In this document: positions 5,153-33,619 of the stretch, piece by piece
How the letters are laid out: each line of letters starts with the position of its first letter
How positions within the stretch are numbered: the stretch's first letter is position 1
Source: Alphaproteobacteria bacterium
GTDB lineage: Bacteria > Pseudomonadota > Alphaproteobacteria > SHVZ01
Direction of reading: 5' to 3'
Length of the DNA: 64,000 bases
Assembly (NCBI GenBank): GCA_041906305.1
Contig: JAYRJL010000005.1
Location: 212,269-276,268 of the forward strand
Made by a program: the position numbers and the translations under genes
The notes under the pieces: generated by a model
What the model was told of the DNA's origin: nothing
The model's database searches: none
The model's input: the letters and a program-made list of their open reading frames with translations, nothing else

Positions 5153-5929
5153 CTAGTGGGCGAGCAGGGCGGGAACCTTGTCCTGGTCGAGCACGCTTTC
5201 CGTGGCGCCGCCCAGCACCCATTCGCGCATGCGCGAATGGCCGTAGGCGCCCATCACCAGCAGATCGGCGCCGCTGGTACGCACTTCCTCAAGCAGAAGC
5301 TCGCCGACGTCGGCGCCGCGGGCGAGGCGCTCGCGGACGTTCGCCTTGACGCCGTGCCTGCCGAGGCTGCGCGCGATGTCGATGCCCATGCCGTCCTGAG
5401 ACGGATCGATGACGAGGATGTCGACGGCCTCGGCGGCTTCGAGAAGCGGCAGGGCGTCGTGGACGGCGCGGGCGGCTTCGCGGCTTCCGTTCCAGGCGAC
5501 CAGAGGCCGGCGAGGCGCCTGCCCTTTGGCCGAGGTAGCGGCGAGGACCGGGGTGGCTGCCGCGAACACGAGGTCGCGGGCGACGTCGGGCGTGCAGACG
5601 GTGAGGTCGGCGTAGTTGGCGTGGACCGCGGCGTTGGCGACTTCGTCGCCGCGCTCGCAGCGCCACTCGATCGCCTGGCCGGTGGCTGTGGCCGTCGCCT
5701 CGACCTTGGCCCGGATTGCCTCGGCGGCCTTTTCGGCCTCCTCCTGCTGGGCCTCGATGACGGAGGCGGGAATATCGCCGCCCATCCCGCTGTAGAGAAC
5801 CAGCGGCGGCGGAATGACGTGGAGCGCCGCCAGATGGGCCGAGTGGCGTTTGGCAAGCGCGATGGCCATGCTCAAGGGCCCTTCCTCTTGCACGGAAGAG
5901 ACGACGACGAGCAGAGTCTTGATGTTCAT
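5153..5929 (-). CDS. Tandem-domain universal stress protein (UspA family).
   Basis: Two Usp domains are present, and the C-terminus reads ...LLVMGAYGHSRMREWVLGGATESVL. The start was chosen at MNIKTLLVVVSS, which has a GAGGAGG RBS. Confidence 0.85.
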   Translation of the reverse strand: MNIKTLLVVVSSVQEEGPLSMAIALAKRHSAHLAALHVIPPPLVLYSGMGGDIPASVIEAQQEEAEKAAEAIRAKVEATATATGQAIEWRCERGDEVANAAVHANYADLTVCTPDVARDLVFAAATPVLAATSAKGQAPRRPLVAWNGSREAARAVHDALPLLEAAEAVDILVIDPSQDGMGIDIARSLGRHGVKANVRERLARGADVGELLLEEVRTSGADLLVMGAYGHSRMREWVLGGATESVLDQDKVPALLAH

Positions 5930-5981
5930 GCGATCCTCCTCGGATGTGGCAGAAGGAGGCCTCCAATTCGCGGCTCGATCC

Positions 5982-5995
5982 TTGATCTGCGTCAA
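5982..5995. promoter_or_regulatory. FixK/FNR-type anaerobox TTGATCTGCGTCAA.
   Basis: It matches TTGA-N6-TCAA exactly. It is centred about 59 bp upstream of the usp start at 5929 and about 130 bp upstream of the pat start. Confidence 0.6.
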
Positions 5996-6120
5996 GCAAA
6001 GCTCCGATCGGGGACGGGCGCGCCCGCGACCGGCGGACTTGACATGAGTCAAGCCGGGACAGGCCCCGCTCCCTCATCATGCGCGGCCCCTCGCACCGCC
6101 CCGACTCCTGGCTGAACCGC

Positions 6121-8799
6121 ATGTCCATCCGTAACCTAGACGCTCTCTTCAGACCCCGATCGGTGGCCGTCATCGGGGCCAGCCCGCGGCCCGGTTCGGT
6201 CGGACTCGTCCTGACCCAGAACCTGCTCGCCGGCGGGTTCGCCGGCCCGATCCACGCGGTCAATCCCAGGCACGCGGAGGTGGCGGGACTGAAGGTTCAT
6301 CCGGACGTCGCGGCGCTGCCCGAGGCGCCGGACCTCGCCGTCATCTGCACGCCGCCGGCGACGGTGCCGGGACTGGTCGCCGAGCTCGCGCGGCGCGGCA
6401 CGCGGGGCGCCGTCGTGGTCACCGCCGGCTTCAAGGAGCTCGGCAGCGCCGAAGGGCGCCGGCTCGAGCAGGCGATTCTCGACGCTGCCCGCCCGAACCT
6501 GCTCCGCGTCATCGGACCCAACTGCGTCGGCGTCATGTCGACCGCGGTCGGGCTCAACGCGACGTTCGCGCATATCGGTGCACGCAAGGGCAGTGTCGCC
6601 TTCGTCACCCAGTCGGGCGCCATGGCGACGACCGTGCTCGACTGGGCCTCCGATCGCGGCATCGGCTTCTCCTACCTGGCCTCGCTCGGCGACATGGCCG
6701 ACGTCGACTTCGGCGACATGCTCGATTTCCTCGCCAACGACACGGCGACGAGCTCGATCCTTCTCTACGTCGAGGCCATCACCAACAGCCGGAAGTTCAT
6801 GTCGGCGGCGCGCGCGGCCGCCCGCCTGAAGCCGGTGATCGTGATCAAGGCCGGGCGACACGACGCGGCGGCGCGCGCCGCGGCGTCGCACACCGGCGCG
6901 ATGGCGGGCGCCGACGGCGTCTACGACACCGCGTTCCGCCGCGCCGGCATGCTGCGCGTGCAGAGCCTGAGCGAGCTGTTCGATGCCGCCGGAACTCTTG
7001 CGACGTCGCTGCCGGTTTCGGGCGACAGGCTGGCGATCCTGACCAATGGCGGCGGTGCCGGCGTGCTCGCGACCGATGCCCTGCTCGATCTCGACGGCCG
7101 CCTCGCCGAGCTTTCGCCGGCCACGATCGACGCGCTGGACAAGGTCCTGCCGTCGACCTGGCCCCGGGCGAACCCGGTCGACATCATCGGCGACGCGCCG
7201 GCAGCGCGCTATGCGGATGCGCTGCGGATCATCAAGGACGCGCCCGAGGTTGACGCGACGCTGGTGCTGAACTGCCCGACCGCGATCGGGTCGGGAGTCG
7301 ATGCCGCGCGCGCCGTGGCTGGGGTCGCCTCCGAAGGGCGGCGCGCGATCCTGACCAGCTGGCTCGGCAGCAGCGCGGCGGCCGAGGCGCGACGGACCTT
7401 TGCCTCCGCCGGGATCCCGACCTACGACACGCCCGACGCGGCAGTCCGCGGCTTCATGCACCTGGTCAGGTACAAGCGCAATCAGGCGCAACTGATGGAG
7501 GTGCCGGCCGCCGGATCCGAGGAACCCAGGAGCCGCACCGAGGAGGCCCGGCAGATCGTTGCGGACGCGCTTTCCGGCGGAAGGTCGTGGCTGGACGAAG
7601 CCGAGATCACCCGGCTGTTCGCCTGCTACGGCATCCCGGCCGCGCGTTCGCTGCTCGCCACGGATCCCGACGATGCCGCCCGGTGCGCCTCGGCGCTCGG
7701 CGGCCCCTTCGCGCTCAAGGTTTCCTCGCCCGACATCACGCACAAGTCCGACGTCGGCGGCGTCGTGCTGGATCTCGCGACTCCGGAAGAGGTTCGCGGC
7801 GCGGCGGTGGCGATGCGCCGCCGCGTCGAGCAGGCGGTGCCGAACGGCCGCGTGACCGGTTTCATCGTCCAGGAGATGGTCCGTCGGCCCCGCGCGCATG
7901 AGGTGATCCTCGGCATGGCCGTCGATCGCCAGTTCGGCCCGTTCATGCTGTTCGGCCATGGCGGCACCGGCGTCGAGGTCATCGCCGACCGCGCGCTGGC
8001 CCTGCCGCCGCTCAACTTGAGCCTCGCGCGCGAACTCATGGCGCGCACGCGGATCCATCGCCTGCTGGTGGGGTACCGCAACCGTCCGGCCGCCGATCTC
8101 GACGCCGTCGCCGGGACGCTGGTCCGCCTGTCGCAGCTGATCTGCGATCTCGACGAGGTGGTCGAGATCGACCTCAATCCGCTTCTGGCGGACGAGACCG
8201 GCGCGATCGTGGTCGATGCCCGCATGCGCGTCGCACCCATGCCGGCGGGTGCCGCGCGCGGATCGCGCCTGTCGATCGTGCCCTATCCGAAGGAGCTCGA
8301 GCAGGTCGTCGAGATTCAGGGCGTCGGTCCGGTGCTGATGCGCCCGGTACGGCCGGAAGACGCGCCGGCCATCCTCCGCTACGTCGAAGGTCTTGCGCCG
8401 GAGGATGCGCGGCTGCGCTTCTTCGGCGCGATCCGCACCCTCTCCAAGGAGATGCTCGTGCGCCTGACCCAGATCGACTACGACCGTCAGATGGCATTCG
8501 TGCTCGAGGCGTCGGGCGAGATCCTCGGTGTGTCGCGCCTCGCGGCCGATCCCGACAACCGCCAGGCGGAGTTCGCGGTGACCGTCGGCAGCAAGCTCAA
8601 GTCGCGCGGCATCGGAACGCTCCTGATGCGCCGGCTGATCGAGCACGCGCAGGCGCGGCACATCGGCGAGCTGGTCGGCGAGATCCTCGCGGAGAACGCA
8701 CCGATGCTCTCGCTCGCCCGCGACCTCGGATTCAGGCTGAGCCCGCCCGACATCCGGAGCGGCACGGTCCACGCGGTGCTTCCGCTCGCGACGGCCTGA
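6121..8799 (+). CDS. pat: Pat-type protein lysine acetyltransferase (acetyl-CoA synthetase (ADP-forming)-like CoA-binding/ATP-grasp domains fused to a C-terminal GNAT)
   Basis: The N-terminus is the CoA-binding motif SVAVIGASPRPGSVG. Succinyl-CoA-synthetase-like and ATP-grasp regions follow, and the C-terminus is a GNAT domain (...QAEFAVTVGSKLKSRGIGTLLMRRLIEHA). The start was taken at M15, which gives an N-terminus like known Pat proteins. Confidence 0.8.
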   Translation: MSIRNLDALFRPRSVAVIGASPRPGSVGLVLTQNLLAGGFAGPIHAVNPRHAEVAGLKVHPDVAALPEAPDLAVICTPPATVPGLVAELARRGTRGAVVVTAGFKELGSAEGRRLEQAILDAARPNLLRVIGPNCVGVMSTAVGLNATFAHIGARKGSVAFVTQSGAMATTVLDWASDRGIGFSYLASLGDMADVDFGDMLDFLANDTATSSILLYVEAITNSRKFMSAARAAARLKPVIVIKAGRHDAAARAAASHTGAMAGADGVYDTAFRRAGMLRVQSLSELFDAAGTLATSLPVSGDRLAILTNGGGAGVLATDALLDLDGRLAELSPATIDALDKVLPSTWPRANPVDIIGDAPAARYADALRIIKDAPEVDATLVLNCPTAIGSGVDAARAVAGVASEGRRAILTSWLGSSAAAEARRTFASAGIPTYDTPDAAVRGFMHLVRYKRNQAQLMEVPAAGSEEPRSRTEEARQIVADALSGGRSWLDEAEITRLFACYGIPAARSLLATDPDDAARCASALGGPFALKVSSPDITHKSDVGGVVLDLATPEEVRGAAVAMRRRVEQAVPNGRVTGFIVQEMVRRPRAHEVILGMAVDRQFGPFMLFGHGGTGVEVIADRALALPPLNLSLARELMARTRIHRLLVGYRNRPAADLDAVAGTLVRLSQLICDLDEVVEIDLNPLLADETGAIVVDARMRVAPMPAGAARGSRLSIVPYPKELEQVVEIQGVGPVLMRPVRPEDAPAILRYVEGLAPEDARLRFFGAIRTLSKEMLVRLTQIDYDRQMAFVLEASGEILGVSRLAADPDNRQAEFAVTVGSKLKSRGIGTLLMRRLIEHAQARHIGELVGEILAENAPMLSLARDLGFRLSPPDIRSGTVHAVLPLATA

Positions 8800-8832: not shown

Positions 8833-9258
8833 TCAGGGCACGATCATGACGGGGCAGCCCGCCAGATGGATGGTCTTCCGCGACACGCTGCCGAACACCA
8901 GCGAGGTGACGCGCCCTCTGCCGCGCCGGCCGACGACGATGACGTCGGCCTGACGGCGCCTGGCGGCGTTGACGATCTCCTCGGCCGGATCGCCGACGGC
9001 AGCGGCCGTCTCGACGCCGGGGGCACCGGCGAGCGCCGCCTTCTCCTTGGCGCGCATCAGGAAGGGCGGGCGGAGGTCGACGAGGGCGTCGCGCGACTCC
9101 TCCAAGGAGGCACGTTCCCCCGAGTCGATGGCCTGGGGCAGGCTCCGCACCGCCAGCAGGGTGAGATCGGCGCCGCTCGCCTTCGCGATCTTCGCGGCGA
9201 CGCAGATCGCGCGATCGGCATGGGCCGATCCGTCGACGCCGACCAGGATTCTCTTCAT
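8833..9258 (-). CDS. Universal stress protein, single domain.
   Basis: The sequence reads MKRILVGVDGS...VIVVGRRGRGRVTSLVFGSVSRKTIHLAGCPVMIVP, which is the canonical Usp ATP-binding motif. Confidence 0.85.
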   Translation of the reverse strand: MKRILVGVDGSAHADRAICVAAKIAKASGADLTLLAVRSLPQAIDSGERASLEESRDALVDLRPPFLMRAKEKAALAGAPGVETAAAVGDPAEEIVNAARRRQADVIVVGRRGRGRVTSLVFGSVSRKTIHLAGCPVMIVP

Positions 9259-9329: not shown

Positions 9330-9343
9330 TTGATCTAACTCAA
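9330..9343. promoter_or_regulatory. FixK/FNR-type anaerobox TTGATCTAACTCAA.
   Basis: It lies 72 bp upstream of the usp start at 9258, between the fixK stop and usp. Confidence 0.6.
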
Positions 9344-9364: not shown

Positions 9365-10105
9365 TCAGGCGACGCCGCTTCCGATCGTGACCAGCTTGCC
9401 GCGGTCGCGGACGACGATCTGGCTGGCGGTCGGGATGTCGATGACGTGACTCTCGCGAAGCTGCGTCAGGATGCGGCTGACGGTCTCGATGGTGAGGCCC
9501 AGATAGTCGGCGATGTCCGCGCGGCACATCGGCAGCTTGATCGTGTCGGCGTCGACCGTCTTCGGCGACCGCGTGCGCTCGGTCATGGCCAGAAGGAAGG
9601 ACGCGATGCGCTCGACGGCGCTCTTGCGGCAGAGGGTGAGCAGACGCTCCTGCGCCGCCGAAAGCTGGCCGCACATCAGGTTGAAGAAGCGGCGCCCGGC
9701 ACGGGGATCTTCCTCGAGGAGCTGCTTCAGCTGCTGCTTCGGATAGCGGACGAAGCTGGTGTCGGACAGCACTTCGAGGGAGTGGCTGTAGGTGCCGTCC
9801 TCGGCGAGGCCGAAGAAGTCGCCGGGGAGCAGGAAGTCGATGACCGAGCGGCGGCCGTCGGGCAGCAGGCGGACCATGCGGAGCGCGCCACTGACCACCT
9901 TGTAGACGTGCTCCGCGGCATCTCCCTGCTCGACGATCGTCTTGCCGCGCGGCATCACGTGGAGCGAGCCCAGCCGGTCCAGCGAAGCGGTGCCCGCTTC
10001 GGCGCCGGTCGGCGGCGCGAGCCGGGGAAGCTGGGTGGACGAGGTCTTCCGCGCGGGGATCTGGGTGCGGATGGCCGGGGACGCCTGAGTAGCAACTGCC
10101 GTCAT
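9365..10105 (-). CDS. fixK: Crp/Fnr-family transcription regulator of the FixK type. It has no N-terminal Cys cluster.
   Basis: It has a cNMP-binding-like domain and a C-terminal HTH (ADIADYLGLTIETVSRILTQL). The conserved E..SR recognition residues are present and match the TTGAT half-sites found in the window. The start was chosen at the second ATG because it has a GGAGGG RBS. Confidence 0.8.
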   Translation of the reverse strand: MTAVATQASPAIRTQIPARKTSSTQLPRLAPPTGAEAGTASLDRLGSLHVMPRGKTIVEQGDAAEHVYKVVSGALRMVRLLPDGRRSVIDFLLPGDFFGLAEDGTYSHSLEVLSDTSFVRYPKQQLKQLLEEDPRAGRRFFNLMCGQLSAAQERLLTLCRKSAVERIASFLLAMTERTRSPKTVDADTIKLPMCRADIADYLGLTIETVSRILTQLRESHVIDIPTASQIVVRDRGKLVTIGSGVA

Positions 10106-10214
10106 TTTTCCCTCCTGCAGCGACATCGTCGCGTTGGGAGGAGGCTACTGGCGTTGGGCGGCGCGAGAAATTTCGGGATTGTACTTAAGGGATACTACGT
10201 AGCCGCGGCGGCCC

Positions 10215-10595
10215 TCAGGACGCGAGCTGGAGCATCGCCTTTTCGATCTCGCTGAACAGGCGCGCGCCGAAGAGCGGCTTCTCGAGAAACGCCTGGACGC
10301 CCAGCGCATCGGCCTGGGCGCGGGACGCGGGATCCCATCGGCCGGTCACCATGATGACGAAGACCCTGTCCCCGCGCTCGCGCAGCTTCTGCATCAGCTC
10401 GATGCCGGTCATCTGCGGCATGTGATTGTCGAGAATGACGCATTCTCCGGCCGTGTCCCGGTCGCGCGCCAGGAACTCGGCCGCGGAAGCGTAGTCGGAG
10501 ACCGAGAAACCACGGGACTCCAGAAGAGCCTTCAGGGAATCCCGCACCATCTCGTCGTCGTCGACGATGTGAACGGTGCGCGCGCCAGTCGTCAT
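10215..10595 (-). CDS. Single-domain response-regulator receiver protein. It is FixT-like and lies between fixJ and fixK.
   Basis: It is 126 aa and contains only a REC domain (VHIVDDDEMVRDSLKALLESRGF...D57-like...VIMVTG...K). It has no output domain. Confidence 0.8.
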   Translation of the reverse strand: MTTGARTVHIVDDDEMVRDSLKALLESRGFSVSDYASAAEFLARDRDTAGECVILDNHMPQMTGIELMQKLRERGDRVFVIMVTGRWDPASRAQADALGVQAFLEKPLFGARLFSEIEKAMLQLAS

Positions 10596-10707
10596 ACCTG
10601 CCCTAACTCCTCCGCTCCGGAATTGGTCTCATGCGAGCGGAGCCGATGTCGTTCACATATGGCGAAAATCCGGATGAATGCCCATTAAGGAGAATTACCT
10701 ATCGTCG

Positions 10708-11322
10708 CTAGCGCGCGATCATCCCGGCCGCCAGGGCCATCCGCACCAGGTGGGAGAGGCTGTCCGCTTCCATCTTCTTCATGAGATTCGCGCGATGGAT
10801 CTCGACGGTGCGCGGGCTGATCTTGAGCTCGAAAGCGATGATCTTGTTCGGGTGGCCAATCACAAGTTGCTCGAGCACGTCGCGCTCGCGCGGAGTCAGC
10901 GCCGCGATCTTGGCCGCGGTGCCGGCGTCCTGGACGTGGTCCTCGCCCGAGCTCGCCTTGGCCTGCTCGAGGGCACGCGCCACGGCGGCGAGGATGATCT
11001 CGTTGCCGTACGGCTTCTCGACGAAGTCGGTGGCGCCGGCCTTCATGGCACGGACTGCCAGCGGCACGTCCCCGTGCCCGGTCACCATGATGACCGGCAG
11101 GCTCGCCGCATCGGCCTTCAGCCGCTCGATCAGCTGCAGGCCGTCCATGCCCGGCATCCTGAGATCGACCACGGCACAGGCCTGGGTCCCCGGGCGAAAG
11201 GCGCCGAGAAACGCCTCGGCGGAGTCGTAGGTGGAAACGTTGAACCCGCGGGATTCGAGCAGCGCTTGCAGGGAGTCCCTGACCGCCTCGTCGTCGTCGA
11301 CGACATAGATCGTTCCGGCCAC
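10708..11322 (-). CDS. fixJ: Two-component response regulator FixJ, with REC and LuxR-type HTH domains.
   Basis: The sequence starts VAGTIYVVDDDEAVRDSLQALLESRGFNV... and has a C-terminal LuxR HTH (LTPRERDVLEQLVIGHPNKIIAFELKISPRTVEIHRANLMKKM). The GTG start sits 10 nt after the fixL stop and has a GGAG RBS. Confidence 0.85.
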   Translation of the reverse strand: MAGTIYVVDDDEAVRDSLQALLESRGFNVSTYDSAEAFLGAFRPGTQACAVVDLRMPGMDGLQLIERLKADAASLPVIMVTGHGDVPLAVRAMKAGATDFVEKPYGNEIILAAVARALEQAKASSGEDHVQDAGTAAKIAALTPRERDVLEQLVIGHPNKIIAFELKISPRTVEIHRANLMKKMEADSLSHLVRMALAAGMIAR

Positions 11323-11335: not shown

Positions 11336-12823
11336 CTAACCGGCGGGCAGCAGGAAACGGAACACCGTCCCGCCGCCCGGATTGGGTTCCGCCCAGATGC
11401 GCCCGCCATGATCGCCGACGATAGACTGGCTGATCGAGAGTCCGATTCCCATGCCGGTCTTCTTCGTCGTGGTGAAGGGCTTGAACAGGTTTTCCACGAT
11501 CTCGGCCGGGAGGCCCGGTCCGGTGTCGGCGATCGCAACCTCCTGATGGTCGTCGTCGAAACCGCTCGTGCGGATCACGAGCTCGCGCCGTTCGACGCCG
11601 TTCATGGCCTCGATGGCGTTGCGCACCAGGTTCACCACGACCTGCTGGATCTGGATCTTGTCCATGCTGATGGGTCGAAGGTCCGGCGCCAGGTCGTAGA
11701 GGATAGAGATGCCGTCGAGCTTGGCACCGACCGTGGCGAGCGCACCGGCCTCCTCGACGACCATCGAGAGCGATTCCGGGGCACGCTCGACCTCCGTCTT
11801 CTCCACGAAACGTCGCAGCCGCCGGATGATCTGTCCCGCCCGCTCGGCCTGCGCCGCGATCTTGCCGAGGAAGTCGACGATGCGATCCACAGGCGGGCTC
11901 GACGTCGACATCATGTGACGGGTGGCATCGCTGTAGTTGACCACCGCTGTCAGGGGCTGGTTGAGCTCGTGCGCCAGCGAGGACGCGAGCTGGCCCATCG
12001 CGCTCAGCCGCGTGATGTGCTGCATCTCGCCGGTCAGCTCGCGGATGCGGCCTTCGGCCTGGCGAAGATCCGTGGTGTTCCGGCCGATCGTCGAGATCCC
12101 GGTCACCTCTCCCTTGTCGTTGCGGATCGGCGAGAGGGTCAGCGACATGTCGAGCAGGCGGCCGTCCTTGGTCACGCGCTGGGTATCGTACTGGGCGATC
12201 ACCTCTCCCCGACACACGCGTCGGATGAGGTCGTCGACCTCGCCCTTCCGTTCGGGCGGGGCCAGGTCGGCGATCGGCCGGCCGATCATTTCCGCGGCCG
12301 TGTAGCCGTAGGTCAGCTCCGCGCCCCGGTTCCAGGCGGCGACGATGCCGCGGAGATCCTTGCCGATGATGACGTCGTGCGAGGATTCGACGATGGCCGC
12401 GAGCCGGTCGCGCTCCTGCTCGAACTGCTTCTGCCGGGTGAGGTCGTGGATGATGCCGACGAAGATGCTCCGCCCGCCCTGGTGCCCTTCGCCGACCGAG
12501 AGGTACATCGGAAAGACCGAGCCGTCCTTCCGCCGTCCCGTGACCTCGCGCCCGTGGCCGATGATCTTGGCCTTCCCGGTGGTGCGGTAGGCCGCGATGT
12601 AGCGGTCGTGCTCGTCATGATAGGGGGACGGCATCAGCATGCGGATGTTCTGGCCGATCACCTCGGCCGCCGGATAGCCGAACAGCCGCGCGCAGGCCGG
12701 GTTGTAGACCTGGACGATCCCGACGGCGTCGATGACGATGATGCCGTCGACAGCGGTCGTCAGCAGCGCATCGAGCTGAGCGCTTTCGACGTCCCGGCGA
12801 TCGTCGGACCCGGTCCGAATCAT
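11336..12823 (-). CDS. fixL: Oxygen-sensor histidine kinase FixL. A heme-binding PAS domain comes first, then a second PAS, then HisKA/HATPase.
   Basis: The first PAS domain aligns closely with the Bradyrhizobium FixL heme-PAS (NIRMLMPSPYHDEHDRYIAAYRTTGKAKIIGHGREVTGRRKDGSVFPMYLSVGE). The H-box is LAHELNQPL, and a C-terminal ATPase domain (GMGIGLSIS) follows. Confidence 0.85.
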   Translation of the reverse strand: MIRTGSDDRRDVESAQLDALLTTAVDGIIVIDAVGIVQVYNPACARLFGYPAAEVIGQNIRMLMPSPYHDEHDRYIAAYRTTGKAKIIGHGREVTGRRKDGSVFPMYLSVGEGHQGGRSIFVGIIHDLTRQKQFEQERDRLAAIVESSHDVIIGKDLRGIVAAWNRGAELTYGYTAAEMIGRPIADLAPPERKGEVDDLIRRVCRGEVIAQYDTQRVTKDGRLLDMSLTLSPIRNDKGEVTGISTIGRNTTDLRQAEGRIRELTGEMQHITRLSAMGQLASSLAHELNQPLTAVVNYSDATRHMMSTSSPPVDRIVDFLGKIAAQAERAGQIIRRLRRFVEKTEVERAPESLSMVVEEAGALATVGAKLDGISILYDLAPDLRPISMDKIQIQQVVVNLVRNAIEAMNGVERRELVIRTSGFDDDHQEVAIADTGPGLPAEIVENLFKPFTTTKKTGMGIGLSISQSIVGDHGGRIWAEPNPGGGTVFRFLLPAG

Positions 12824-26160: not shown

Positions 26161-26225
26161 CTTCGTTCCTCTCGCGGCTGCGGAGCCGGATAAGTGCAAT
26201 TTGATGGGTATTTGCGGTGCCGACC

Positions 26226-26239
26226 TTGAGATGGATCAA
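26226..26239. promoter_or_regulatory. FixK/FNR-type anaerobox TTGAGATGGATCAA upstream of pilin paralog 3.
   Basis: Its centre is about 72 bp upstream of the ATG at 26160. Confidence 0.55.
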
Positions 26240-26258
26240 GCAAAACCGGCGTCGCCGC

Positions 26259-26852
26259 CTACTTGATGTTCATCGTGACGGTGAGCGTGTCCTGGTAGGT
26301 GCCGGCGGCAAGCGCGCCGTCGCCGGTGAAGTTCACGAAGATGTTGCTGTTCTCGCCGAACGCCTTCCAGTTGGAGACGTCGCGCGCGACCTGGCCGGTG
26401 CAGGCGCTCTGCAGCAGGTTGGTGACGGTGGCCTGGCTGCCGCCGCCGGTCGGGTTGTTGAACTCCGCCGTGTAGCGCAGAACCTCGTTCGAGGCGGCAT
26501 CGATCACCTTGGCGCCGGCCGTGCCCGAGGCGCAGTTGAGCGAGGTGATGGTGAGCGTGTAGCCGATCTTCTTGTTGCAGGTCTGTGCGGCGGCGCCAAC
26601 CTGCACATGCTGCGCGCCCGTCGTGGTCAGAGGCAGGTTGGACGCGCCCGTCGCCGTGCTGACGCTGAGCGTGCAGTTCTGCGCCACGGCGCCTTGCAGC
26701 AGCACCGTCGTCGCGGCGGCGCAGATCTCGCAGTCCTCGGCGAACTGCGAGGCGACCACCGCGGCGCCGACGAGGACGGCGGCCACGGCCGCCGCAGCGA
26801 GAGGAGCGCGGCGATTTTTGCGGTTGAGGATGGTCATGTCTGCCGACTTCAC
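26259..26852 (-). CDS. SCPU-domain major pilin paralog 2.
   Basis: The sequence ...FAEDCEICAAATTVLLQG...GTYQDTLTVTMNIK identifies it. Its ATG and the stop of paralog 1 overlap in an ATGA arrangement. Confidence 0.75.
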   Translation of the reverse strand: MKSADMTILNRKNRRAPLAAAAVAAVLVGAAVVASQFAEDCEICAAATTVLLQGAVAQNCTLSVSTATGASNLPLTTTGAQHVQVGAAAQTCNKKIGYTLTITSLNCASGTAGAKVIDAASNEVLRYTAEFNNPTGGGSQATVTNLLQSACTGQVARDVSNWKAFGENSNIFVNFTGDGALAAGTYQDTLTVTMNIK

Positions 26853-27415
26853 TTCACGTTCATGGTGACGGTGATCGTGTCCTGGTACGTGCCGGCGGCG
26901 AGGTTGCCGTCACCGGTGAAGTTCACGAAGACCAGGCTGCTCTCGTTCCGCGCCTTCCAGTTGGTGACGTCGCGACCGACCTGGCTCGCGCAGGCCGACT
27001 GCAGCAGGCCGGTCACGGTCGCCTGGCTGCCGCCGTCCGTCGGGTTGTTGAACTCGGTGCTGTAGGCCAGGACCTCGGTCGACACCGGATCGATCACCTT
27101 CGCGCCGGCAGTGCCGCTCGCGCAGTTTGCCGAGCTGACGGTAAGCGTGTAGCCGACCTTCTTGTTGCAACTCTGGAGGACCGAGCCGACCTGGACATGC
27201 TGGCTGCCGGCGGTCGTCAGGGGCAGGTTCGCCGCCGCGGCCGTCGAACTGACGTCGAGCGTGCAGTTCTGCGCGACGGTGCCCTGCAGCAGGATCTGGT
27301 TCGCCGCCTCGCACACCTCGCAGTCGCTGAACAGCGACAGCCCGGCGGCAATCGCGATCGCGCCGGCACCGGCGGCGAGCAGATGCCACCGCTTGAACTG
27401 GGGTTTGAACGACAT
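26849..27415 (-). CDS. SCPU-domain major pilin paralog 1, the first gene of the pilus operon.
   Basis: The sequence runs MSFKPQFKRWHLLAAGAGAIAIAAGLSLFSDCEVCEAAN...GTYQDTITVTMNVK. Confidence 0.75.
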   Translation of the reverse strand: MSFKPQFKRWHLLAAGAGAIAIAAGLSLFSDCEVCEAANQILLQGTVAQNCTLDVSSTAAAANLPLTTAGSQHVQVGSVLQSCNKKVGYTLTVSSANCASGTAGAKVIDPVSTEVLAYSTEFNNPTDGGSQATVTGLLQSACASQVGRDVTNWKARNESSLVFVNFTGDGNLAAGTYQDTITVTMNVK

Positions 27416-27502
27416 GGTTTGCCCTTTCCGAGATCAGGAGGGTGGCCTGGCGGACCACCGCACTTTCTGTTTCCAGGAGAGCAAATCGCCGCCTGACGCA
27501 CC

Positions 27503-27516
27503 TTGATCTGCGTCAA
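27503..27516. promoter_or_regulatory. FixK/FNR-type anaerobox TTGATCTGCGTCAA upstream of the pilus operon.
   Basis: Its centre is about 94 bp upstream of the ATG at 27415. Confidence 0.6.
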
Positions 27517-27550
27517 ACAAAATTGAGTAAAATGCGGCGTTTTCGAGGCG

Positions 27551-28603
27551 TCAGCGAAGTTGTTCGACCGCCTGCAACCGACGCTCCGGCGATGCGGCAC
27601 GGTGGTGGAAGTAGGCCGCGACGGCGACGAGGATCGCGCCGACGAAGATGGCGATGTGGCGATCCACGACGATCGGGTCGCCCCGCCATGCGGCCCTCGT
27701 CTCGACCAAGACCATCAGCGTGCCCAGCAGGCTCGCGAAGGCCCCGAGCAGATCGAGACGCCAGGCGCGGTACCCGAACAGCGAACCCCGCCCATAGCGC
27801 GCGGTCGAGCCTCCCTGCGCGAGCACGATGCGATAGACGAGCCTTGCGGCGGCGAGCACCGCGATGGTTCCGACCACGAATCCGGCGGTCTGCAGCAGCG
27901 GCGCGAACGGTGCATGGATGCCGAACGTGTTGCGCACCAGCAGGAGCGGGTAGTTGTAGAGCGCGTGAAGGGCGACCGGGACGTAGAGGGCGGCCGCATA
28001 GCTGCGCCATCTGAACGAAGCGCCGTGACTCGCGCCCATGACGTTGCCGAACTTGGCGCGCGCGACATAGACACCGGCGATCACGCCCAGCGCGCCGTGG
28101 GTGGGTACGGTGAGGATGCTGCGGATGACCGCGTGCTCGCGCCACGCATCGGTGAGATGCACGGCGAGCAGGAGGTTCTCGTAGGCGGCCAGCCCGAGCC
28201 CGACGGCGGCGCCGTAGATGACGCCCTCCATCGGATGGTCGTAGGCGAGGAACCGGCGTGAGAAGAGAAGAAGGATAAGGACCTTGAGCGTCTCCTCCGG
28301 GATCGCGATGTCGACCACCGCCTGAAGCAGGGTCGCCACCGACCGGTCCGGCTCGAGCCAGGCGACATCCTCGCCGAACAGGAGCTGCAGGGCGTCGAGG
28401 ATGTAGTCGCCGATGAAGCTCGCCGCGGGTGAGATCACGTGCAGCGCCGAGGTGCTGAGGGCGCCGAGGAGGAACGTCCCGACGACCGCGTAGGCCGGCT
28501 CGGGCCGCTTGTCGAAGAACGTCAGGGTCAGGAGATAGAGAAGCGGCGGCGCTACGGCCGCCGCGCCGAGCACGGTGACCATGGCTTCAGCGGCCGCGCC
28601 CAT
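27551..28603 (-). CDS. PrsW-family intramembrane metalloprotease-like protein (polytopic membrane protein).
   Basis: Multiple TM helices carry the PrsW motifs EExxK (IPEETLKV), FxxxE-like (AAYEN) and conserved His residues (PTHGALG, HALYNYP). The start is uncertain (M51 or M58 of the track ORF). Confidence 0.6.
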   Translation of the reverse strand: MGAAAEAMVTVLGAAAVAPPLLYLLTLTFFDKRPEPAYAVVGTFLLGALSTSALHVISPAASFIGDYILDALQLLFGEDVAWLEPDRSVATLLQAVVDIAIPEETLKVLILLLFSRRFLAYDHPMEGVIYGAAVGLGLAAYENLLLAVHLTDAWREHAVIRSILTVPTHGALGVIAGVYVARAKFGNVMGASHGASFRWRSYAAALYVPVALHALYNYPLLLVRNTFGIHAPFAPLLQTAGFVVGTIAVLAAARLVYRIVLAQGGSTARYGRGSLFGYRAWRLDLLGAFASLLGTLMVLVETRAAWRGDPIVVDRHIAIFVGAILVAVAAYFHHRAASPERRLQAVEQLR

Positions 28604-28676
28604 GGGACTGCTTCGGCTCGAAGCGGGGCGACCCCGCCGGAATGCACGGGTTTGAGCGCATGCAGGGCTCGATCGC

Positions 28677-30365
28677 TCAATCCAGGTGGATGGTGCGGCC
28701 GCCCATGCGCTGGGCCGCTTCGGCGGCCTGGCGACGGGTGGCGCTGACCGCATGCTCGGCCGCCCAGACGCGCATCTGCGCGATCTGCTCGCGCCGGGTC
28801 TGCGCCAACGGCACGAGCCGCGGCAGGATCGCCTCGAAATCCGCCATCTCGAGGTCGCCCTCGACCTTGGCGTTCCGCGTGCGCTGGAAGGATTCGATCA
28901 GCGCCTCGGACACCCACGCCTCGATCTCGGCGCCGCTCATGCGGATGTCGGGGCCGAAATGCTTCTCGCCCGACAGCTCGACCAGGCGATCGAGGTCGAA
29001 CTTGGACGGATCGCGGCGACGCCGGCGGATCTGGACCTCGAAGATCTGCTTACGCTCCTCGTCGTTCGGCAGGTCGATGAAGAACACCTCGTCGAACCGC
29101 CCCTTGCGCAGTATTTCCGGCGGCAGGGCGGCGACGTCGTTGGCGGTGGCGAAGATGAACACCGGCGCGGTCTTCTCCTGCATCCAGGTGAGCAGGGTGC
29201 CGAACACGCGAAGCGAGACGCCGCTGTCGCCGATCATGCGGCTGGAATGGGCGAGGCCCTTCTCGATCTCGTCGATCCACAGCACGCAGGGGGCGATCGC
29301 CTCGCAGGTCTTGAGCGCGTTCCGCATGTGCTCTTCCGACGAGCCGATCAGCGAGGAGAAGATCTTGCCCATGTCGAGCTTGACCAGGGGGAGGCCCCAG
29401 GCGGCGGCCGTGCACTTGGCGGACAGCGACTTGCCGCAGCCGGGGATGCCGGTCAGCAGCACGCCCTTGGGCGGATCGAGGCCGTAGGCCTTCGCCTCCC
29501 GGCCGAAGGTCAGGCTGCGGATCTGCAGCCAGCGCTTGAGCACGTCGAGGCCGCCGACGTCGCCGGCCGAAAGCGACCGGTTGTCGATGTATTCGAGGAT
29601 TCCCGACTTCCGGATGATCTGCTTCTTCTCGTCGAACATGAAGCGCGTGTCTTCGAGCGTGATCGCCCGGTCGTGGACGAGGGCCTTGGCCAGGCAGTTT
29701 TCGATCTCGGCGAGCGTCAGGCCCATCGCCGCGTCCGTCAGCGCCTCGATCATCTCGCGCCCGGGCTCGACGGTGATCGTGGTGTTCTCGGCGACGCGGG
29801 TGACGAACTGCTCGACGAAGCGGCCCACCTGCTCGCGATCCGGAACCGGGAAGTCGACGACCGTGATCTCCTTCTCGAGCTCGAGAGGGATCTCGAGGCT
29901 CGGGGAGATGATCACGCAGGAGGCGCTGAAGCCGTGGCCGCGGATGGCCATGGCGAACTCGCGCAGCCGGCGGCGGTAGATCGCATCGACGGGCTTGTCG
30001 CTGAGGAAGGGGAACGGGTCGAGAAGCACGAACAGGTGCCGCTTGCCGTCCTGGGCGATGCGCTCGCACTGGTCGATCGCGATCTTGAGATCGGCAAGGG
30101 AGTCCTTGAAGGTCTGCGGCTTCTCGTCCCCGTCCTCGAGCTTCGAGACCAGGCCGCGCACCACCGTCCAGACGTGGATGTGATAGGTCAGCGCCTTGGC
30201 GACGTCGACGACGACCTTGAGCGCCCGCTCCTCCTCGTAGGTGAAGACCTGCACGATGGGAAAGCGGGCGCGCAGCAGGTCGGCGATCTCGTTGGCGAAC
30301 GCGGTCTTGAAGGTCGCAGCCGGATATCCGGCTGTCGCGACCTTGGCCAGGGAGACGGGGCACAT
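28677..30365 (-). CDS. AAA+ ATPase of the classical AAA clade (FtsH/Cdc48-like ATPase domain) with a 270-aa N-terminal domain of unknown function.
   Basis: Walker A is GVLLTGIPGCGKS, Walker B is CVLWIDEIE, and the second region of homology is ATANDVAALPPEILRKGRFDEVFFIDLP. The N-terminal 270 aa are unassigned. Confidence 0.8.
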   Translation of the reverse strand: MCPVSLAKVATAGYPAATFKTAFANEIADLLRARFPIVQVFTYEEERALKVVVDVAKALTYHIHVWTVVRGLVSKLEDGDEKPQTFKDSLADLKIAIDQCERIAQDGKRHLFVLLDPFPFLSDKPVDAIYRRRLREFAMAIRGHGFSASCVIISPSLEIPLELEKEITVVDFPVPDREQVGRFVEQFVTRVAENTTITVEPGREMIEALTDAAMGLTLAEIENCLAKALVHDRAITLEDTRFMFDEKKQIIRKSGILEYIDNRSLSAGDVGGLDVLKRWLQIRSLTFGREAKAYGLDPPKGVLLTGIPGCGKSLSAKCTAAAWGLPLVKLDMGKIFSSLIGSSEEHMRNALKTCEAIAPCVLWIDEIEKGLAHSSRMIGDSGVSLRVFGTLLTWMQEKTAPVFIFATANDVAALPPEILRKGRFDEVFFIDLPNDEERKQIFEVQIRRRRRDPSKFDLDRLVELSGEKHFGPDIRMSGAEIEAWVSEALIESFQRTRNAKVEGDLEMADFEAILPRLVPLAQTRREQIAQMRVWAAEHAVSATRRQAAEAAQRMGGRTIHLD

Positions 30366-30530: not shown

Positions 30531-30544
30531 TTGATGTAGGTCAA
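30531..30544. promoter_or_regulatory. FixK/FNR-type anaerobox TTGATGTAGGTCAA between the divergent AAA-ATPase and transporter genes.
   Basis: It overlaps the GTG that the track uses as the ORF start. The true transporter start is therefore probably downstream, for example the ATG at 30687. Confidence 0.5.
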
Positions 30545-30545
30545 C

Positions 30546-32231
30546 GTGCAGTCGCGTCTTCCGGCCGAGAAAGGCCCGGCAGGAGGGAAGGCCATCCAGC
30601 CCCTAGCCGCATTCTTCCGTCGCTGGTTCGATGTCCTGGTCCTCGACCTCGGGCGTCAGTTCCGCATCTCCTACCTTCCGCCCCTGATGGTCTACCTGGC
30701 GGCGGGCGTGTCCGGCCTGACGGCGATCGTCGGGACCTTCTTCGTGAAGGAGCATTTCGGGTTCTCTGCCTCCCTGCTGGCGTCGCTGGCGTTCTGGGCC
30801 GGGGTGCCCTGGACGCTCAAGATCCCGGTCGGCCACGCGGTCGACCTGCTGTGGCGGTGGAAAGCGGCGCTGATCTTTCTCGGTGCGCTCCTGATCGCCG
30901 CGTCCATCGGCATCATGTACGGCCTGATCGCACATCCCGGCCCGATGGGGTCGGTGCTGCCGCTCGAGGTCTGGTACGTCTCGAGCGTCCTGCTGGCGCC
31001 GATCGGCTACGTCCTCCAGGACGCGGTCGCCGATGCGATGACCGTGGAGGCCGTGCCCCTCTTCGACCCGCACGGCGTCAAGTACGCGGAAGAGACGGTG
31101 AAGGCGATGCACACGACGATGCAGACCCTCGGGCGGGTCGCGATCATCGGCGGGCTCGCCGCCGTCGCCGCGCTGAACATCTGGATGCTCGCCGGCGCGG
31201 CCGGGATGACGGAAGCGGCCCGGGCGGAGATCTACGCCGACATCTACCTGCTCGCGCTCTGCATCCCGGCGATCTCGGTGGCCGGCGTCGTCCTCGCCTG
31301 GGTCGTCCGCCGACGGGACGTTCGCCGGCTGGCGAGCCAGGGACTCGACCCGGAACGGATCGCGGCGATGCTGGATGTCCACGGCGCCGCGCCGAAGGCG
31401 AACTGGTGGATACTCGGCGGCGGCAGCGCCTTCGCGCTGTTCACGCTGGGGGCCGGCCTCGCCCCGGTCGCGTTCAACCAGGAAATCGTCTTCGCCGGAT
31501 CCATGGCGATCGTCGCCTTCCTGATGCGCCGCCTCCTGGTCGAGCTTCCGGCCGAGCAGCGGCAGGCCCTGGTCGGCACCGCGGTGATCATCTTCGTCTT
31601 CCGGGCGGTGCCCGGACCGGGGCCCGGGGTCGGCTGGTGGGAGATCGACGTCCTCGGATTCGACCAGCAGTTCCTCTCGGTATTGAGCTTCATCACGTCG
31701 GGCCTCACGCTCGCTGGCATGCTGGCGCTTCGCCCGCTGATCGCCCGGCGGTCGATCGCGGACGTCGTGATCATCCTGACGCTGGCCGGCGCGGTCCTGT
31801 CGCTGCCGAACATCTCGCTGTTCTACGGCCTGCACGAATGGACCGCGTCCCTGACCGGCGGCATCGTCGACGCGCGCGCCATCGCGATCATGGACACGAT
31901 GCTCGAATCTCCGCTCGGGCAGCTGGCGATGATCCCGATGCTGGCCTGGATCGCCAAGAACGCGCCGGAGCAGCTGAAGGCGACCTTCTTCGCGGTGATG
32001 GCGTCGTTCGCCAATCTGGCGCTGGCCGCGAGCAGCCTCGGGACCAAGTACCTGAACGAGATCTTCATCGTCACGCGCGAGGTTCGCGATCGCGCGACGG
32101 GGGCCGTGCTGGTTTCCCCCGACTACTCCCGGGTCGGCTGGCTCCTGGTCACCGCGGCGCTGCTGGCAGCGATCGTGCCGCTGCTGACCGTTGCGGTCGT
32201 CCAGGCGTCGCCGCTCCGGACGAAGCAGTAG
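30546..32231 (+). CDS. Polytopic membrane transporter, MFS-like and possibly of the BT1 folate-biopterin transporter family. The start is uncertain, and the ATG at 30687 is more likely.
   Basis: It has at least 12 predicted TM segments. The family assignment is tentative. Confidence 0.5.
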   Translation: MQSRLPAEKGPAGGKAIQPLAAFFRRWFDVLVLDLGRQFRISYLPPLMVYLAAGVSGLTAIVGTFFVKEHFGFSASLLASLAFWAGVPWTLKIPVGHAVDLLWRWKAALIFLGALLIAASIGIMYGLIAHPGPMGSVLPLEVWYVSSVLLAPIGYVLQDAVADAMTVEAVPLFDPHGVKYAEETVKAMHTTMQTLGRVAIIGGLAAVAALNIWMLAGAAGMTEAARAEIYADIYLLALCIPAISVAGVVLAWVVRRRDVRRLASQGLDPERIAAMLDVHGAAPKANWWILGGGSAFALFTLGAGLAPVAFNQEIVFAGSMAIVAFLMRRLLVELPAEQRQALVGTAVIIFVFRAVPGPGPGVGWWEIDVLGFDQQFLSVLSFITSGLTLAGMLALRPLIARRSIADVVIILTLAGAVLSLPNISLFYGLHEWTASLTGGIVDARAIAIMDTMLESPLGQLAMIPMLAWIAKNAPEQLKATFFAVMASFANLALAASSLGTKYLNEIFIVTREVRDRATGAVLVSPDYSRVGWLLVTAALLAAIVPLLTVAVVQASPLRTKQ

Positions 32232-32245
32232 AACCGGCGGCCGCG

Positions 32246-33619
32246 ATGACCGAACCGAAGGAGAGGTGGGGCAGCCGGATCGGCTTCGTGCTGGCGACGA
32301 TCGGCTCCGCCGTCGGCCTCGGCAGCATCTGGAAGTTCCCCTACGAGGTCGGCGAGAACGGCGGCAGCGGATTCGTCCTCCTCTACCTCGCCGGCCTTGC
32401 GCTCATCGTGACGCCGCTGATGCTCGGCGAATTCGCGATCGGCCGTGCCGGCGGCCGGGACGCGCGCAAGAGCATGGAGATCCTCGCGGCCGCGCATCGG
32501 GCGCCTCGCTCCTGGCGCGACGCGGGCACGCTCGGCGTCGTCGCGTCCGCCCTCATCCTCAGCTTCTACTCGGTCGTCGGCGGATGGGCGCTGGCCTACG
32601 CCGTCGAGACGCCGTTCCTCGGCCTGCCGGGCTCCGGCATCGGCGAGGCGCAGCAGCGCTTCGACGCCCTGCTCGGCTCGCCCGGGCGCATCGGCCTCTA
32701 TCACTCGGCCTTCATGGCATTCACGGCGGTGATCGTCGGGCGCGGCGTCGCCGCCGGAATCGAGGCCGCGGCCAAGTTCCTGATGCCGCTCCTGGTCTGC
32801 CTGATGCTGGCCGTCGCCGCCTATGCCCTCGCGGTCGGCGACGTCTCGCGCACCCTGGCCTACCTCTTCGCCTTCGACCTCGACCGCATGACCGCACGGA
32901 CGGCCCTGGAGGCGGTCGGGCTCGGCTTCTTCTCCATCGGCGTCGGCCTCGCCGTCATGGTGACCTACGCGGCCTATGCCGAGAGGAGCATCGATCTGAA
33001 ATCCGCTGCCGTCTGGGCGATCCTCAGCGACACGGCGATCTCGTTCCTCGCCGGCTTCGCGATCTTTCCGATCGTGTTCGCGAACGGCCTCGATCCCGCG
33101 AGCGGCCCTGGCCTGATGTTCGTCACCCTTCCGCTCGCCTTCTCGGCGATGCCGGCGGGCGGCGTGGTCGCCTTCGCATTCTTCACCTTGTTGTTCGTCG
33201 CCGCCCTGGTCTCGGCGATCTCGATGCTGGAGATGCCGGTCGCCTTCGCGCACAGCACCTTCGGATGGTCCCGGCGGAAGGCGGTCGCCGTCTCGGCCGC
33301 GGCGATATGGCTGGCGGGCTTCCTCTCGGTCTTTTCGTTCAATCTCTGGCGCGATTGGTTTCCGCTCTCGGCATATCCGATCTTCGCCTCGTCGACCTTC
33401 TTCGACCTGATCGACTACCTCACATCCAGCATCATGCTGCCGCTCGGCGGCCTGGCGATCTCGGTCTTCGCCGGCTGGGTCCTGCCGCGCGAGGTGCTGA
33501 GGGACGGGCTCGGCCTCGGCGGGCCGGCGTCGACAATTCTGTACGTCCTGCTGCGCTATGTGGTGCCGCCGATCCTCCTCGCGGTGACTGCCGCGCCTCT
33601 GATCTTTGCCGGCCGCTGA
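32246..33619 (+). CDS. Sodium-dependent transporter of the NSS/SNF family.
   Basis: The hallmark N-terminus is ATIGSAVGLGSIWKFPY. It is in frame with track ORF 30500..33619, and the true start was set at MTEPKERW. Confidence 0.85.
   Translation: MTEPKERWGSRIGFVLATIGSAVGLGSIWKFPYEVGENGGSGFVLLYLAGLALIVTPLMLGEFAIGRAGGRDARKSMEILAAAHRAPRSWRDAGTLGVVASALILSFYSVVGGWALAYAVETPFLGLPGSGIGEAQQRFDALLGSPGRIGLYHSAFMAFTAVIVGRGVAAGIEAAAKFLMPLLVCLMLAVAAYALAVGDVSRTLAYLFAFDLDRMTARTALEAVGLGFFSIGVGLAVMVTYAAYAERSIDLKSAAVWAILSDTAISFLAGFAIFPIVFANGLDPASGPGLMFVTLPLAFSAMPAGGVVAFAFFTLLFVAALVSAISMLEMPVAFAHSTFGWSRRKAVAVSAAAIWLAGFLSVFSFNLWRDWFPLSAYPIFASSTFFDLIDYLTSSIMLPLGGLAISVFAGWVLPREVLRDGLGLGGPASTILYVLLRYVVPPILLAVTAAPLIFAGR

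Follow-up and report, generated by a model that had tools for sequence, protein, structure and literature searches.

How much of an oxygen response can be held by one contiguous piece of a bacterial chromosome, from the sensor down to the genes that it would finally control? We addressed this question in a stretch of 64,000 nucleotides (nt) from an uncultured alphaproteobacterium (GenBank assembly GCA_041906305.1, contig JAYRJL010000005.1, positions 212,269 to 276,268), called here the window, whose positions serve as coordinates throughout. About 29 kb of it hold FixL-FixJ, FixK and some 25 predicted FixK target genes, and we consider it probable, with good confidence, that this chromosomal cluster encodes the FixL-FixJ-FixK oxygen-response cascade in full, along with a good part of its output genes. 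The original prediction had already proposed a fixL-fixJ-receiver-fixK locus lying amid genes preceded by FixK/FNR-type anaeroboxes. Support for it comes from Pfam assignments, the likeness of FixK to FixK2, the heme histidine of FixL, the conservation of the boxes and the spacing of -10-like elements.

Open reading frames (ORFs) were picked by third-position GC and checked by Pfam, by inspection of start codons and Shine-Dalgarno sequences, and by independent gene calls on public contigs, among them a Logan assembly contig that matches part of the window. The regulatory genes and the FixJ-box-like elements are the following:

9365-10105, minus strand: fixK, CRP/FNR family, 246 amino acids (aa), with cNMP_binding, HTH_Crp_2 and Crp domains in Pfam
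10186-10201, minus strand: FixJ-box-like TACGTAGTATCCCTTA upstream of fixK, 13 of 16 positions as in TAAGTAATTTCCCTTA
10215-10595, minus strand: FixT-like single-domain receiver, 126 aa, Response_reg only, between fixJ and fixK
10686-10701, minus strand: FixJ-box-like TAGGTAATTCTCCTTA upstream of the receiver gene, also 13 of 16
10708-11322, minus strand: fixJ, receiver plus LuxR-type helix-turn-helix, 204 aa, GTG start
11336-12823, minus strand: fixL, 495 aa, with N-terminal heme-PAS, second PAS, HisKA and HATPase domains

Residues 16-135 of FixL match the heme domain of BjFixL (E ~1e-35), and the HD of its '...DEHDRYI...' segment pairs with H200-D. R220 and the proximal heme His are both retained, Ala takes the place of R206, and the heme-PAS is the first of two PAS domains. 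The kinase core also matches BjFixL (E 4.5e-83 over the entire chain and 2.1e-79 over the aligned domain). Since the R206 equivalent, a heme-propionate contact, is Ala in this protein, the best PDB match to its heme domain is 2CMN, the R206A mutant of BjFixL. FixJ, whose gene starts 13 nt past the fixL stop, contains both of its expected domains (Response_reg, 6e-29; GerE, 1.8e-20).

In architecture and position the 126-aa receiver corresponds to FixT, an inhibitor of FixL autophosphorylation in both Sinorhizobium and Caulobacter (PMC7078487), and by analogy it may inhibit FixL here. It has a single Cys, C52, and so lacks the 4-Cys Fe-S motif defined for Caulobacter FixT in the same study; this excludes only the Caulobacter subtype, because S. 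meliloti FixT is also devoid of the motif. Furthermore, a search of the whole window with the S. meliloti FixJ site TAAGTAATTTCCCTTA (PMC4999443), allowing up to 3 mismatches, returned exactly the two matches listed above, both on the minus strand, against 0.02 expected. The receiver promoter has its FixJ box and no anaerobox.

Among solved structures, the one closest to FixK is that of DNA-bound B. japonicum FixK2 (PDB 4I2O, E 3.5e-36). The recognition helix IETVSR pairs with LETVSR of FixK2, with E196, S199 and R200 kept (counted from chain numbering), as had been anticipated when the E..SR recognition residues were said to be retained. In addition, a Cys in LPMCRADIADYLG pairs with residue 183 in LPMSRRDIGDYLG of the 4I2O crystal construct, which is the C183S form of FixK2 (PMC9104804). 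This Cys, located in a 'LPMCRAD' motif, is found in all ten members of the 90% identity cluster of the window FixK, and the nearest homologs outside it (61-68% identity) have Asn, Ser or Thr. In FixK2, C183 is sensitive to oxidation. The Cys of the window FixK appears to be a possible redox switch gained in this lineage, and it may make FixK oxidation-sensitive. The N-terminal 100 residues contain neither a Cys nor a CxxCx5C motif, hence no FNR-type set of four Cys, and none of 129 FixK homologs has an N-terminal Cys cluster of the FNR type. Outside the 90% cluster, homologs reach at most 68% identity, and no named relative in the homolog list exceeds ~58%. A paralog, P0238, that appeared linked to a cluster member was rejected, its contig being unrelated.

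The motifs, with their positions, enrichment and conservation, are direct observations, as are the family features of the proteins. With TTGANNNNNNTCAA (TTGA-N6-TCAA) as the query, the window contains 12 perfect matches; 100 dinucleotide-preserving shuffles gave a mean of 0.16, and none of them attained 12. Eleven of the matches lie between 5982 and 30544, and the remaining one, at 55958, falls outside the cluster. Eleven sites had been listed originally: ten of them are exact, 17305 carries one mismatch, as had been said, and two perfect sites, 6039 and 55958, had been overlooked. The sites of the cluster, with distances taken from the box centre to the start codon, are:

5982-5995: anaerobox TTGATCTGCGTCAA, 59.5 nt upstream of the tandem universal stress protein (Usp) start, 5929
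6039-6052: anaerobox TTGACATGAGTCAA, 75.5 nt upstream of the Pat start, 6121
9330-9343: anaerobox TTGATCTAACTCAA, 78.5 nt upstream of the Usp start, 9258
12935-12948: anaerobox TTGACGTGGATCAA, 58.5 nt to the L,D-transpeptidase (Ldt) start, 13000, and 118.5 nt to the fixL start
15000-15013: anaerobox TTGATGTAGGTCAA, 116.5 nt upstream of the lipoprotein start, 14890, for the lipoprotein-nitroreductase unit
15595-15608: anaerobox TTGACGTGGATCAA, between divergent genes, Host_attach/baeRF12 at 70.5 nt and the beta-CASP ribonuclease (RNase) at 78.5 nt
17305-17318: one-mismatch anaerobox CTGATCCAGATCAA, 67.5 nt upstream of the CBS-BON start, 17379
19059-19072: perfect palindrome TTGATCGAGATCAA, upstream of a membrane-protein gene starting at ATG 19109 or GTG 19166
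19718-19731: anaerobox TTGATCTGCGTCAA, 84.5 nt upstream of the start of a 101-aa gene, 19809
26226-26239: anaerobox TTGAGATGGATCAA, 72.5 nt upstream of the third pilin-like gene (start 26160)
27503-27516: anaerobox TTGATCTGCGTCAA, 94.5 nt upstream of the first pilin-like gene (start 27415)
30531-30544: anaerobox TTGATGTAGGTCAA, 172.5 nt from the AAA ATPase start, 30365, and 149.5 nt from the BT1-family transporter ATG, 30687

A symmetrised position weight matrix (PWM) was built from the 11 perfect sites of the cluster. Scored with it across the window, these sites range from 20.8 to 27.8, 17305 reaches 17.2 and 55958 reaches 16.4, and the best other position is at 12.2. The one-mismatch box at 17305, which overlaps the RNase stop codon by 4 nt, is a credible site. 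The match at 55958 is probably due to chance, because it is intragenic and has the lowest PWM score among the perfect sites. It reads TTGACGCAGGTCAA (55958-55971) and lies within an ORF of 246 aa with no family match (55490-56230). An SH3-domain protein encoded on the opposite strand overlaps this ORF if its longest reading frame is taken.

All 11 perfect boxes of the cluster are wholly intergenic, in a region (5010-34631) where intergenic DNA amounts to 7.9%; random placement would give this with P ~7.5e-13. Moreover, 14 intergenic regions between 5930 and 30686 measure 68 bp or more; an anaerobox is present in 11 of them, a FixJ box in 2 and neither in 1. That several sites are sequence-identical holds true, in three groups of 14-mers (5982, 19718 and 27503; 12935 and 15595; 15000 and 30531), whose flanks are unrelated. 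The count of nine in eleven given for sites with TTGAT/ATCAA halves was too low, since every one of the eleven then listed has at least one such half. As for the distance of 43-130 bp to the start codon, most sites agree with it (43.5-118.5 nt), the lowest value hanging on an uncertain start codon, and 30531 departs from it.

The spacing downstream of the boxes offers a further layer of evidence. Among 15 box-gene pairs, the dinucleotide CA, whose genomic frequency is 0.048, occurs exactly 22 nt past the box in 8 (binomial P 1.3e-7; 8.8e-5 after correction for all offsets and dinucleotides), and 11 pairs have a C[AT]NNNT hexamer whose first position is between +20 and +23. A box placed at -48 to -35 would put the start of the hexamer at -12. 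This arrangement is the geometry of class II CRP/FNR-dependent promoters, and the anaeroboxes fit putative class II promoters centred at -41.5. A scan for sigma-70 consensus promoters between 5 and 25 kb found none, as expected if the promoters are activator-dependent. The position of the -10-like element also allows each box to be assigned to a side. Thus 12935 would belong to Ldt and not to fixL, having CATCCT on the Ldt side only, and 30531 would belong to the AAA gene, with CATGGT at +22 on that side and no such element towards BT1. CATCAT is found 22 nt downstream of 6039, on the Pat side. The boxes at 6039 and 5982 share one divergent intergenic region, 57 bp apart, and of the two 6039 is the better placed for Pat.

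Four related loci were available for footprinting. The closest, L165, is 97.6% identical to the window in nucleotides over the main alignment of 21.6 kb and 95.3% averaged over all aligned pieces; L168 (GCA_964655235.1), L163 and L162 (GCA_044223515.1) are 87.5, 87.4 and 86.6% identical, respectively. At orthologous anaeroboxes, differences affect 1 of 208 half-site positions and 7 of 156 spacer positions, against 185 of 1029 in the 20 nt on either side. Several spacers vary while the half-sites stay, and in poorly conserved intergenic DNA the box forms an island of identity. For instance, 6039 exists as TTGACATGAGTCAA, TTGATATGGGTCAA and TTGATTTGGGTCAA among the genomes, with its half-sites kept in L162 and L168, and 12935 reads TTGAGCTGGATCAA in L165 and TTGAGGTGGATCAA in L168 instead of TTGACGTGGATCAA. 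The box at 5982 is identical in L162, L165 and L168, and 17305, followed after 22 nt by CAGACT, is identical in all four relatives; 26226 is present in L165. The FixJ boxes are conserved in L162 as well, perfectly so in the case of the one upstream of fixK.

The cluster, its boxes and fixK have been co-inherited in L162, L165 and L168, and modules come and go along with their own boxes. L162 has neither Ldt nor the 12935 box; it is also devoid of the lipoprotein gene, yet a box of the 15000 type stays ahead of its nitroreductase, inside an otherwise divergent spacer. L168 has no counterpart of positions 20345-30193 (9.8 kb, comprising the pilus operon, PrsW and most of the AAA gene), the junction being at L168:14669-14691 with an overlap of 23 nt. 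As remnants of the genes at both ends persist, this difference is a deletion. The box at 30531 survives in L168 despite it.

Oxygen sensing, phosphotransfer, DNA binding and activation are deduced here from homology and from the logic of the motifs, and the cascade would run as follows. At low oxygen, deoxy-heme FixL would autophosphorylate and pass the phosphate to FixJ. Phosphorylated FixJ would then activate the two FixJ-box promoters, those of fixK and of the FixT-like receiver, and the latter, by analogy with FixT, would feed back to inhibit FixL. In turn, FixK dimers would bind the 12 TTGA-N6-TCAA boxes near -41.5 of promoters devoid of a -35 element (class II) and switch on about 14 transcription units, or about 25 genes. 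The predicted units are those of two Usp proteins, Pat, Ldt, the lipoprotein with the nitroreductase, baeRF12/Host_attach, the beta-CASP RNase, and CBS-BON with PfkB; further ones would be those of two unknown proteins, the two-box pilus operon, AAA/PrsW and a transporter-alcohol dehydrogenase operon.

The boxes could be real and nonetheless serve mainly, or jointly, some other CRP/FNR regulator whose gene lies outside the window (for instance an Fe-S FNR/FnrN, a second FixK or DNR), the local FixK being one of several inputs. Here several points weigh against the cascade as we have described it. The FNR, FixK and DNR motifs are virtually identical in alphaproteobacteria (PMC2908626), and just 64 kb of the genome are in view. 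As the motif is shared and most of the genome lies outside the window, co-regulation by a paralog is conceivable, and many alphaproteobacteria do carry several paralogs with overlapping regulons (PMC2908626, PMC4999443). The cbb3 oxidase and hemN, classic targets of FixK, are absent from the window, which would therefore contain a part of the regulon and not the whole. The relatives used for footprinting are not phylogenetically independent, L165 being so close to the window and L163 and L168 near-identical to each other at shared sites. Finally, some individual boxes are imperfect: 9330, kept in L165 and L168, has one degenerate half-site in L162 (TCAA to GCAA), 17305 has its half-site mismatch, and 30531 stands 150-170 nt from either start codon. 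Nevertheless, fixK sits inside the cluster beside what appears to be its own FixJ-dependent promoter, the motif suits the recognition helix of FixK, none of the window ORFs that were scanned was a second CRP/FNR gene, and the joint inheritance of cluster, boxes and fixK in three relatives speaks for the local regulator. We consequently regard a leading or shared role of an outside regulator as quite improbable, and the FixL-FixJ-FixK cascade as the better account of the locus.

A more limited doubt concerns single sites, since some boxes may be non-activating, whether repressor sites, vestiges or chance matches; the candidates are 55958, 30531, 17305, and 12935 in the direction of fixL. The intragenic position and low score of 55958 point this way, as do the distance of 150-172 nt at 30531, the persistence of that box in L168 after most of the AAA gene was lost, and the lack of a -10-like element on the fixL and BT1 sides. 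However, no relative in which 17305 or 30531 is covered shows any change in them, amid variable flanks, and both have a -10-like hexamer (CAGACT and CATGGT) at exactly +22. This alternative is somewhat unlikely, though it keeps a real share of the probability, and it would leave the regulon as a whole unchallenged. The three groups of identical 14-mers might also suggest copies of a dispersed repeat or an artefact of composition. Such an origin is effectively refuted, with a probability close to nil: identical boxes have unrelated flanks, the shuffles yield almost none, the sites keep strictly to intergenic DNA, relatives preserve the half-sites while spacers vary, and Rfam has no match in the window. 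The genes preceded by the boxes are the following:

5153-5929, minus strand: tandem universal stress protein (Pfam)
6121-8799, plus strand: Pat-type protein acetyltransferase with CoA-ligase-like, ATP-grasp and GNAT domains
8833-9258, minus strand: universal stress protein, 141 aa
13000-13944, plus strand: YkuD L,D-transpeptidase (Pfam)
14567-14890, then 13948-14502, minus strand: alanine-rich lipoprotein, then nitroreductase
15055-15531, minus strand: Host_attach / baeRF_family12 protein, 158 aa
15680-17308, plus strand: beta-CASP metallo-beta-lactamase RNase, 542 aa
17379-18083 and 18105-19040, plus strand: CBS-CBS-BON protein and PfkB-family kinase (Pfam)
19109-19699 and 19809-20114, plus strand: membrane protein and 101-aa protein, no known family matched
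20124-27415, minus strand: chaperone-usher pilus operon of eight genes, namely four paralogous pilin-like genes, a chaperone (24197-24967), an usher (21595-24156), and genes for proteins of 311 and 165 aa
28677-30365 and 27551-28603, minus strand: AAA ATPase and PrsW-family intramembrane protease
From 30687, 32246-33619 and 33633-34631, plus strand: BT1-family transporter, SNF-type transporter and Zn alcohol dehydrogenase (ADH)

The gene order opens with a chemoreceptor, ahead of the tandem Usp. The products encoded at 19109 and 19809 had been taken for two small membrane proteins; the description suits the former, and the 101-aa protein, having no strong hydrophobic segment, is probably not a membrane protein. 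In the ORF that begins at 19109, the first ~20 codons (19109-19166) are poorly conserved in the relatives and the remainder is nearly identical. Translation would start either at GTG 19166, or at ATG 19109 on a near-leaderless mRNA, 43.5 nt from the box centre. At the far end, the cluster had been closed at 33619, that is, before the ADH gene. The gaps of just 13-14 nt suggest a single BT1-SNF-ADH operon, and the cluster probably extends to 34631.

In the leader of fixL, between the 12935 box and the start codon, there is a nested inverted repeat at 12838-12879 (GCGGTAAT...ATTACCGC around ATCCCAAAAC/GTCTTGGGAT). On the fixL-coding strand it reads TAGTATCCC, which it has in common with the FixJ-box region of fixK.

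Past the end of the cluster, at 35790-39882, are genes for a CoxE-like VWA protein, XdhC (split in two ORFs) and a MobA-like protein. Only weak one-mismatch sites, inside coding sequence at 36408 and 36822, are found there; an XdhC-type maturation factor belongs to the predicted FixK regulon of alphaproteobacteria (PMC2908626). The cluster had been termed an island, and the word is to be understood in the regulatory sense. A mobile genomic island was considered and rejected, because GC is even along the window (0.65-0.72, in a genome of ~68-70% GC) and the only tRNA call lies far from the cluster. That call, an ARAGORN tRNA-Ala(GGC) at 203-303, is unusually long (101 nt), and may be false or contain an insertion.

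Three groups of genes are less expected members of such a regulon. As regards the pilus, which had been labeled Csu-type, the usher (PF00577, E 2.9e-19, profile positions 29-540 of 549) and the PapD-like chaperone (PapD_N, E 3.5e-6, 27.4 bits against a cutoff of 23) are confirmed, and the Csu label itself depends on matches below threshold. Under relaxed Pfam settings the pilin-like subunits cover the full length of the SCPU profile at sub-cutoff E values of 0.002, 0.004, 0.16 and 0.64. NCBIfam gave no match for them, and a profile search of PDB only the C-terminal motif of Caf1 (E 0.67). An AlphaFold model from the four paralogs had a confidence score (pLDDT) of 55, and Foldseek returned no PDB match at E <=0.001 for it, chaperone-usher pilins standing at the top of the list. 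The pilus is possibly of a divergent, archaic (Csu/SCPU-like) type. Its four pilin-like proteins (24975-27415) are 46-65% identical and share six invariant Cys, including a C-x2-C right after the signal or transmembrane segment, a pattern that we do not know from chaperone-usher subunits. The box at 26226 is a putative internal promoter of the operon.

The AAA ATPase and the PrsW-family protease recall the ATPase-plus-protease layout of IetAS. PADLOC was run on both, together with the Host_attach protein, the RNase and the two proteins of unknown family; it gave only a generic AAA-domain similarity to IetA (E 8.9e-23, partial), and the label of defence system was rejected. A scan of metagenomes for the AAA ATPase found a best match of 56% identity. 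Members of the family occur on contigs that range from 29 to 75% GC and come from many habitats; PrsW is missing there, and boxes are not consistently linked. Its members being distant, diverse and unlinked to boxes, this family is of no use for footprinting the right half of the cluster.

The third group is the Host_attach/baeRF12 protein and the beta-CASP RNase, whose genes share one box. In 80 alphaproteobacterial loci with an RNase homolog (named relatives of the RNase, at 67-69% identity, are Undibacter and Pseudolabrys), a Host_attach-like ORF lies within 10 kb in 10, from several orders, and directly beside it in 5 (Bosea, Phenylobacterium twice, Kordiimonas and Caulobacter). A perfect anaerobox is found at the 5' or 3' end of the RNase homolog in 12 of the 80, and many of these loci also hold fixLJ or fixK, Pat, Usp, PfkB or ADH; homologs of the ADH (56-63% identity) are near the RNase homolog in six. 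Burroughs and Aravind placed the baeRF-1 families in a predicted stress-linked translational shutdown, with no mention of an RNase partner (PMC6514570). Our survey suggests that the two proteins could form a functional pair in translation shutdown or RNA decay. It is more doubtful, and in our opinion distinctly unlikely, that two genuinely new outputs are at hand, namely a hypoxia-induced baeRF12-RNase module of ribosome stalling and mRNA decay (cf. Dom34/no-go decay) and a direct FixK switch, via two boxes, of a divergent archaic pilus. If true, control of the pilus by FixK would link attachment to surfaces with a shortage of oxygen in a free-living alphaproteobacterium.

What the locus offers is an unusually complete wiring diagram, with a sensor, a response regulator, a feedback receiver, FixK and 12 conserved target promoters of apparent class II geometry. 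It extends the FixK2/lxa/DosR-like gene set of 'hypoxic persistence' to a new alphaproteobacterial lineage, and nominates the chaperone-usher pilus, the AAA/PrsW pair, the L,D-transpeptidase and the baeRF12-RNase pair as candidate members. The general understanding of FixLJ-FixK systems is unchanged. Novelty is modest, since earlier publications describe the same gene palette under the control of FixK2 or of anaeroboxes (PMC6515984, PMC2908626, PMC3721108).

The closest parallel is the FixLJ-FixK2 system of Bradyrhizobium diazoefficiens (japonicum), which shares the heme-PAS FixL, FixJ, a FixK with an LETVSR-type helix and Cys 183, and the TTGA-N6-TCAA box (PMC9104804). In that organism, proteins induced by microoxia, several of them direct FixK2 targets, include Usp, Host attachment, CBS, nitroreductase, 1-phosphofructokinase-family kinase, GNAT acetyltransferase and ADH (PMC6515984), and the genes of the cluster match these kinds (Usp, Host_attach, CBS, nitroreductase, PfkB, GNAT and ADH). 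Likewise, FixL, a CBS protein, a kinase and a Zn-ADH figure in the core FixK regulon predicted by comparison, and FixLJ are named among its members (PMC2908626). The B. diazoefficiens response-regulator gene bll2758 is in the neighbourhood of Usp, CBS and fixNOQP genes. We take it to lie between fixK2 and fixJ. Unlike in Bradyrhizobium, the neighbourhood within the window has no genes for cbb3 oxidase, hemN, denitrification or nif, and the targets are packed beside their regulators instead of scattered. Moreover, the heme-PAS comes first, R206 is Ala, and FixK is distant from FixK2 (E 3.5e-36). The pilus, AAA/PrsW, the L,D-transpeptidase and BT1/SNF are not among the FixK2 targets in the Bradyrhizobium literature cited.

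Caulobacter crescentus, a non-diazotroph in which FixLJ drives fixK and the receiver FixT inhibits FixL (PMC7078487), provides another precedent, including a FixJ site upstream of fixK (PMC4999443), as in the window. It differs in that the receiver described here is devoid of the 4-Cys motif, with a promoter that has a FixJ box and no anaerobox, and in that the outputs in view are genes of stress and persistence type, not terminal oxidases or heme synthesis.

Chaperone-usher fimbriae are known under oxygen control in Pseudomonas aeruginosa, where Anr promotes cupA via the CgrABC regulators (PMC12071387). Unlike in that case, two anaeroboxes directly precede pilin genes in the window, and the pilus is divergent, possibly archaic (Csu/SCPU-like).

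In overall layout, the cluster resembles the lxa locus of Burkholderia cenocepacia, which has 50 genes and 17 intergenic inverted repeats sharing TGA-N6-TCA with Anr/Fnr boxes (PMC3721108). Both are contiguous multi-operon loci, with a box in most intergenic regions and with Usp genes, in which lxa is rich, a nitroreductase, a PfkB-family kinase and BON-type proteins, phospholipid-binding in lxa (PMC3721108). The lxa host, however, is betaproteobacterial and its regulator is not FixLJ-FixK, and it carries ribonucleotide reductase, polyhydroxyalkanoate (PHA) and fermentation genes that are absent from the window. The authors of that work compared lxa with the M. tuberculosis DosR regulon (PMC3721108), and a likeness of the same order, only functional, holds for our cluster: Usp, nitroreductase, PfkB and CBS are hypoxia-induced there, under a NarL-type regulator, with an unrelated motif and scattered genes. 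The locus is thus a further example of a well-known kind of low-oxygen regulon.

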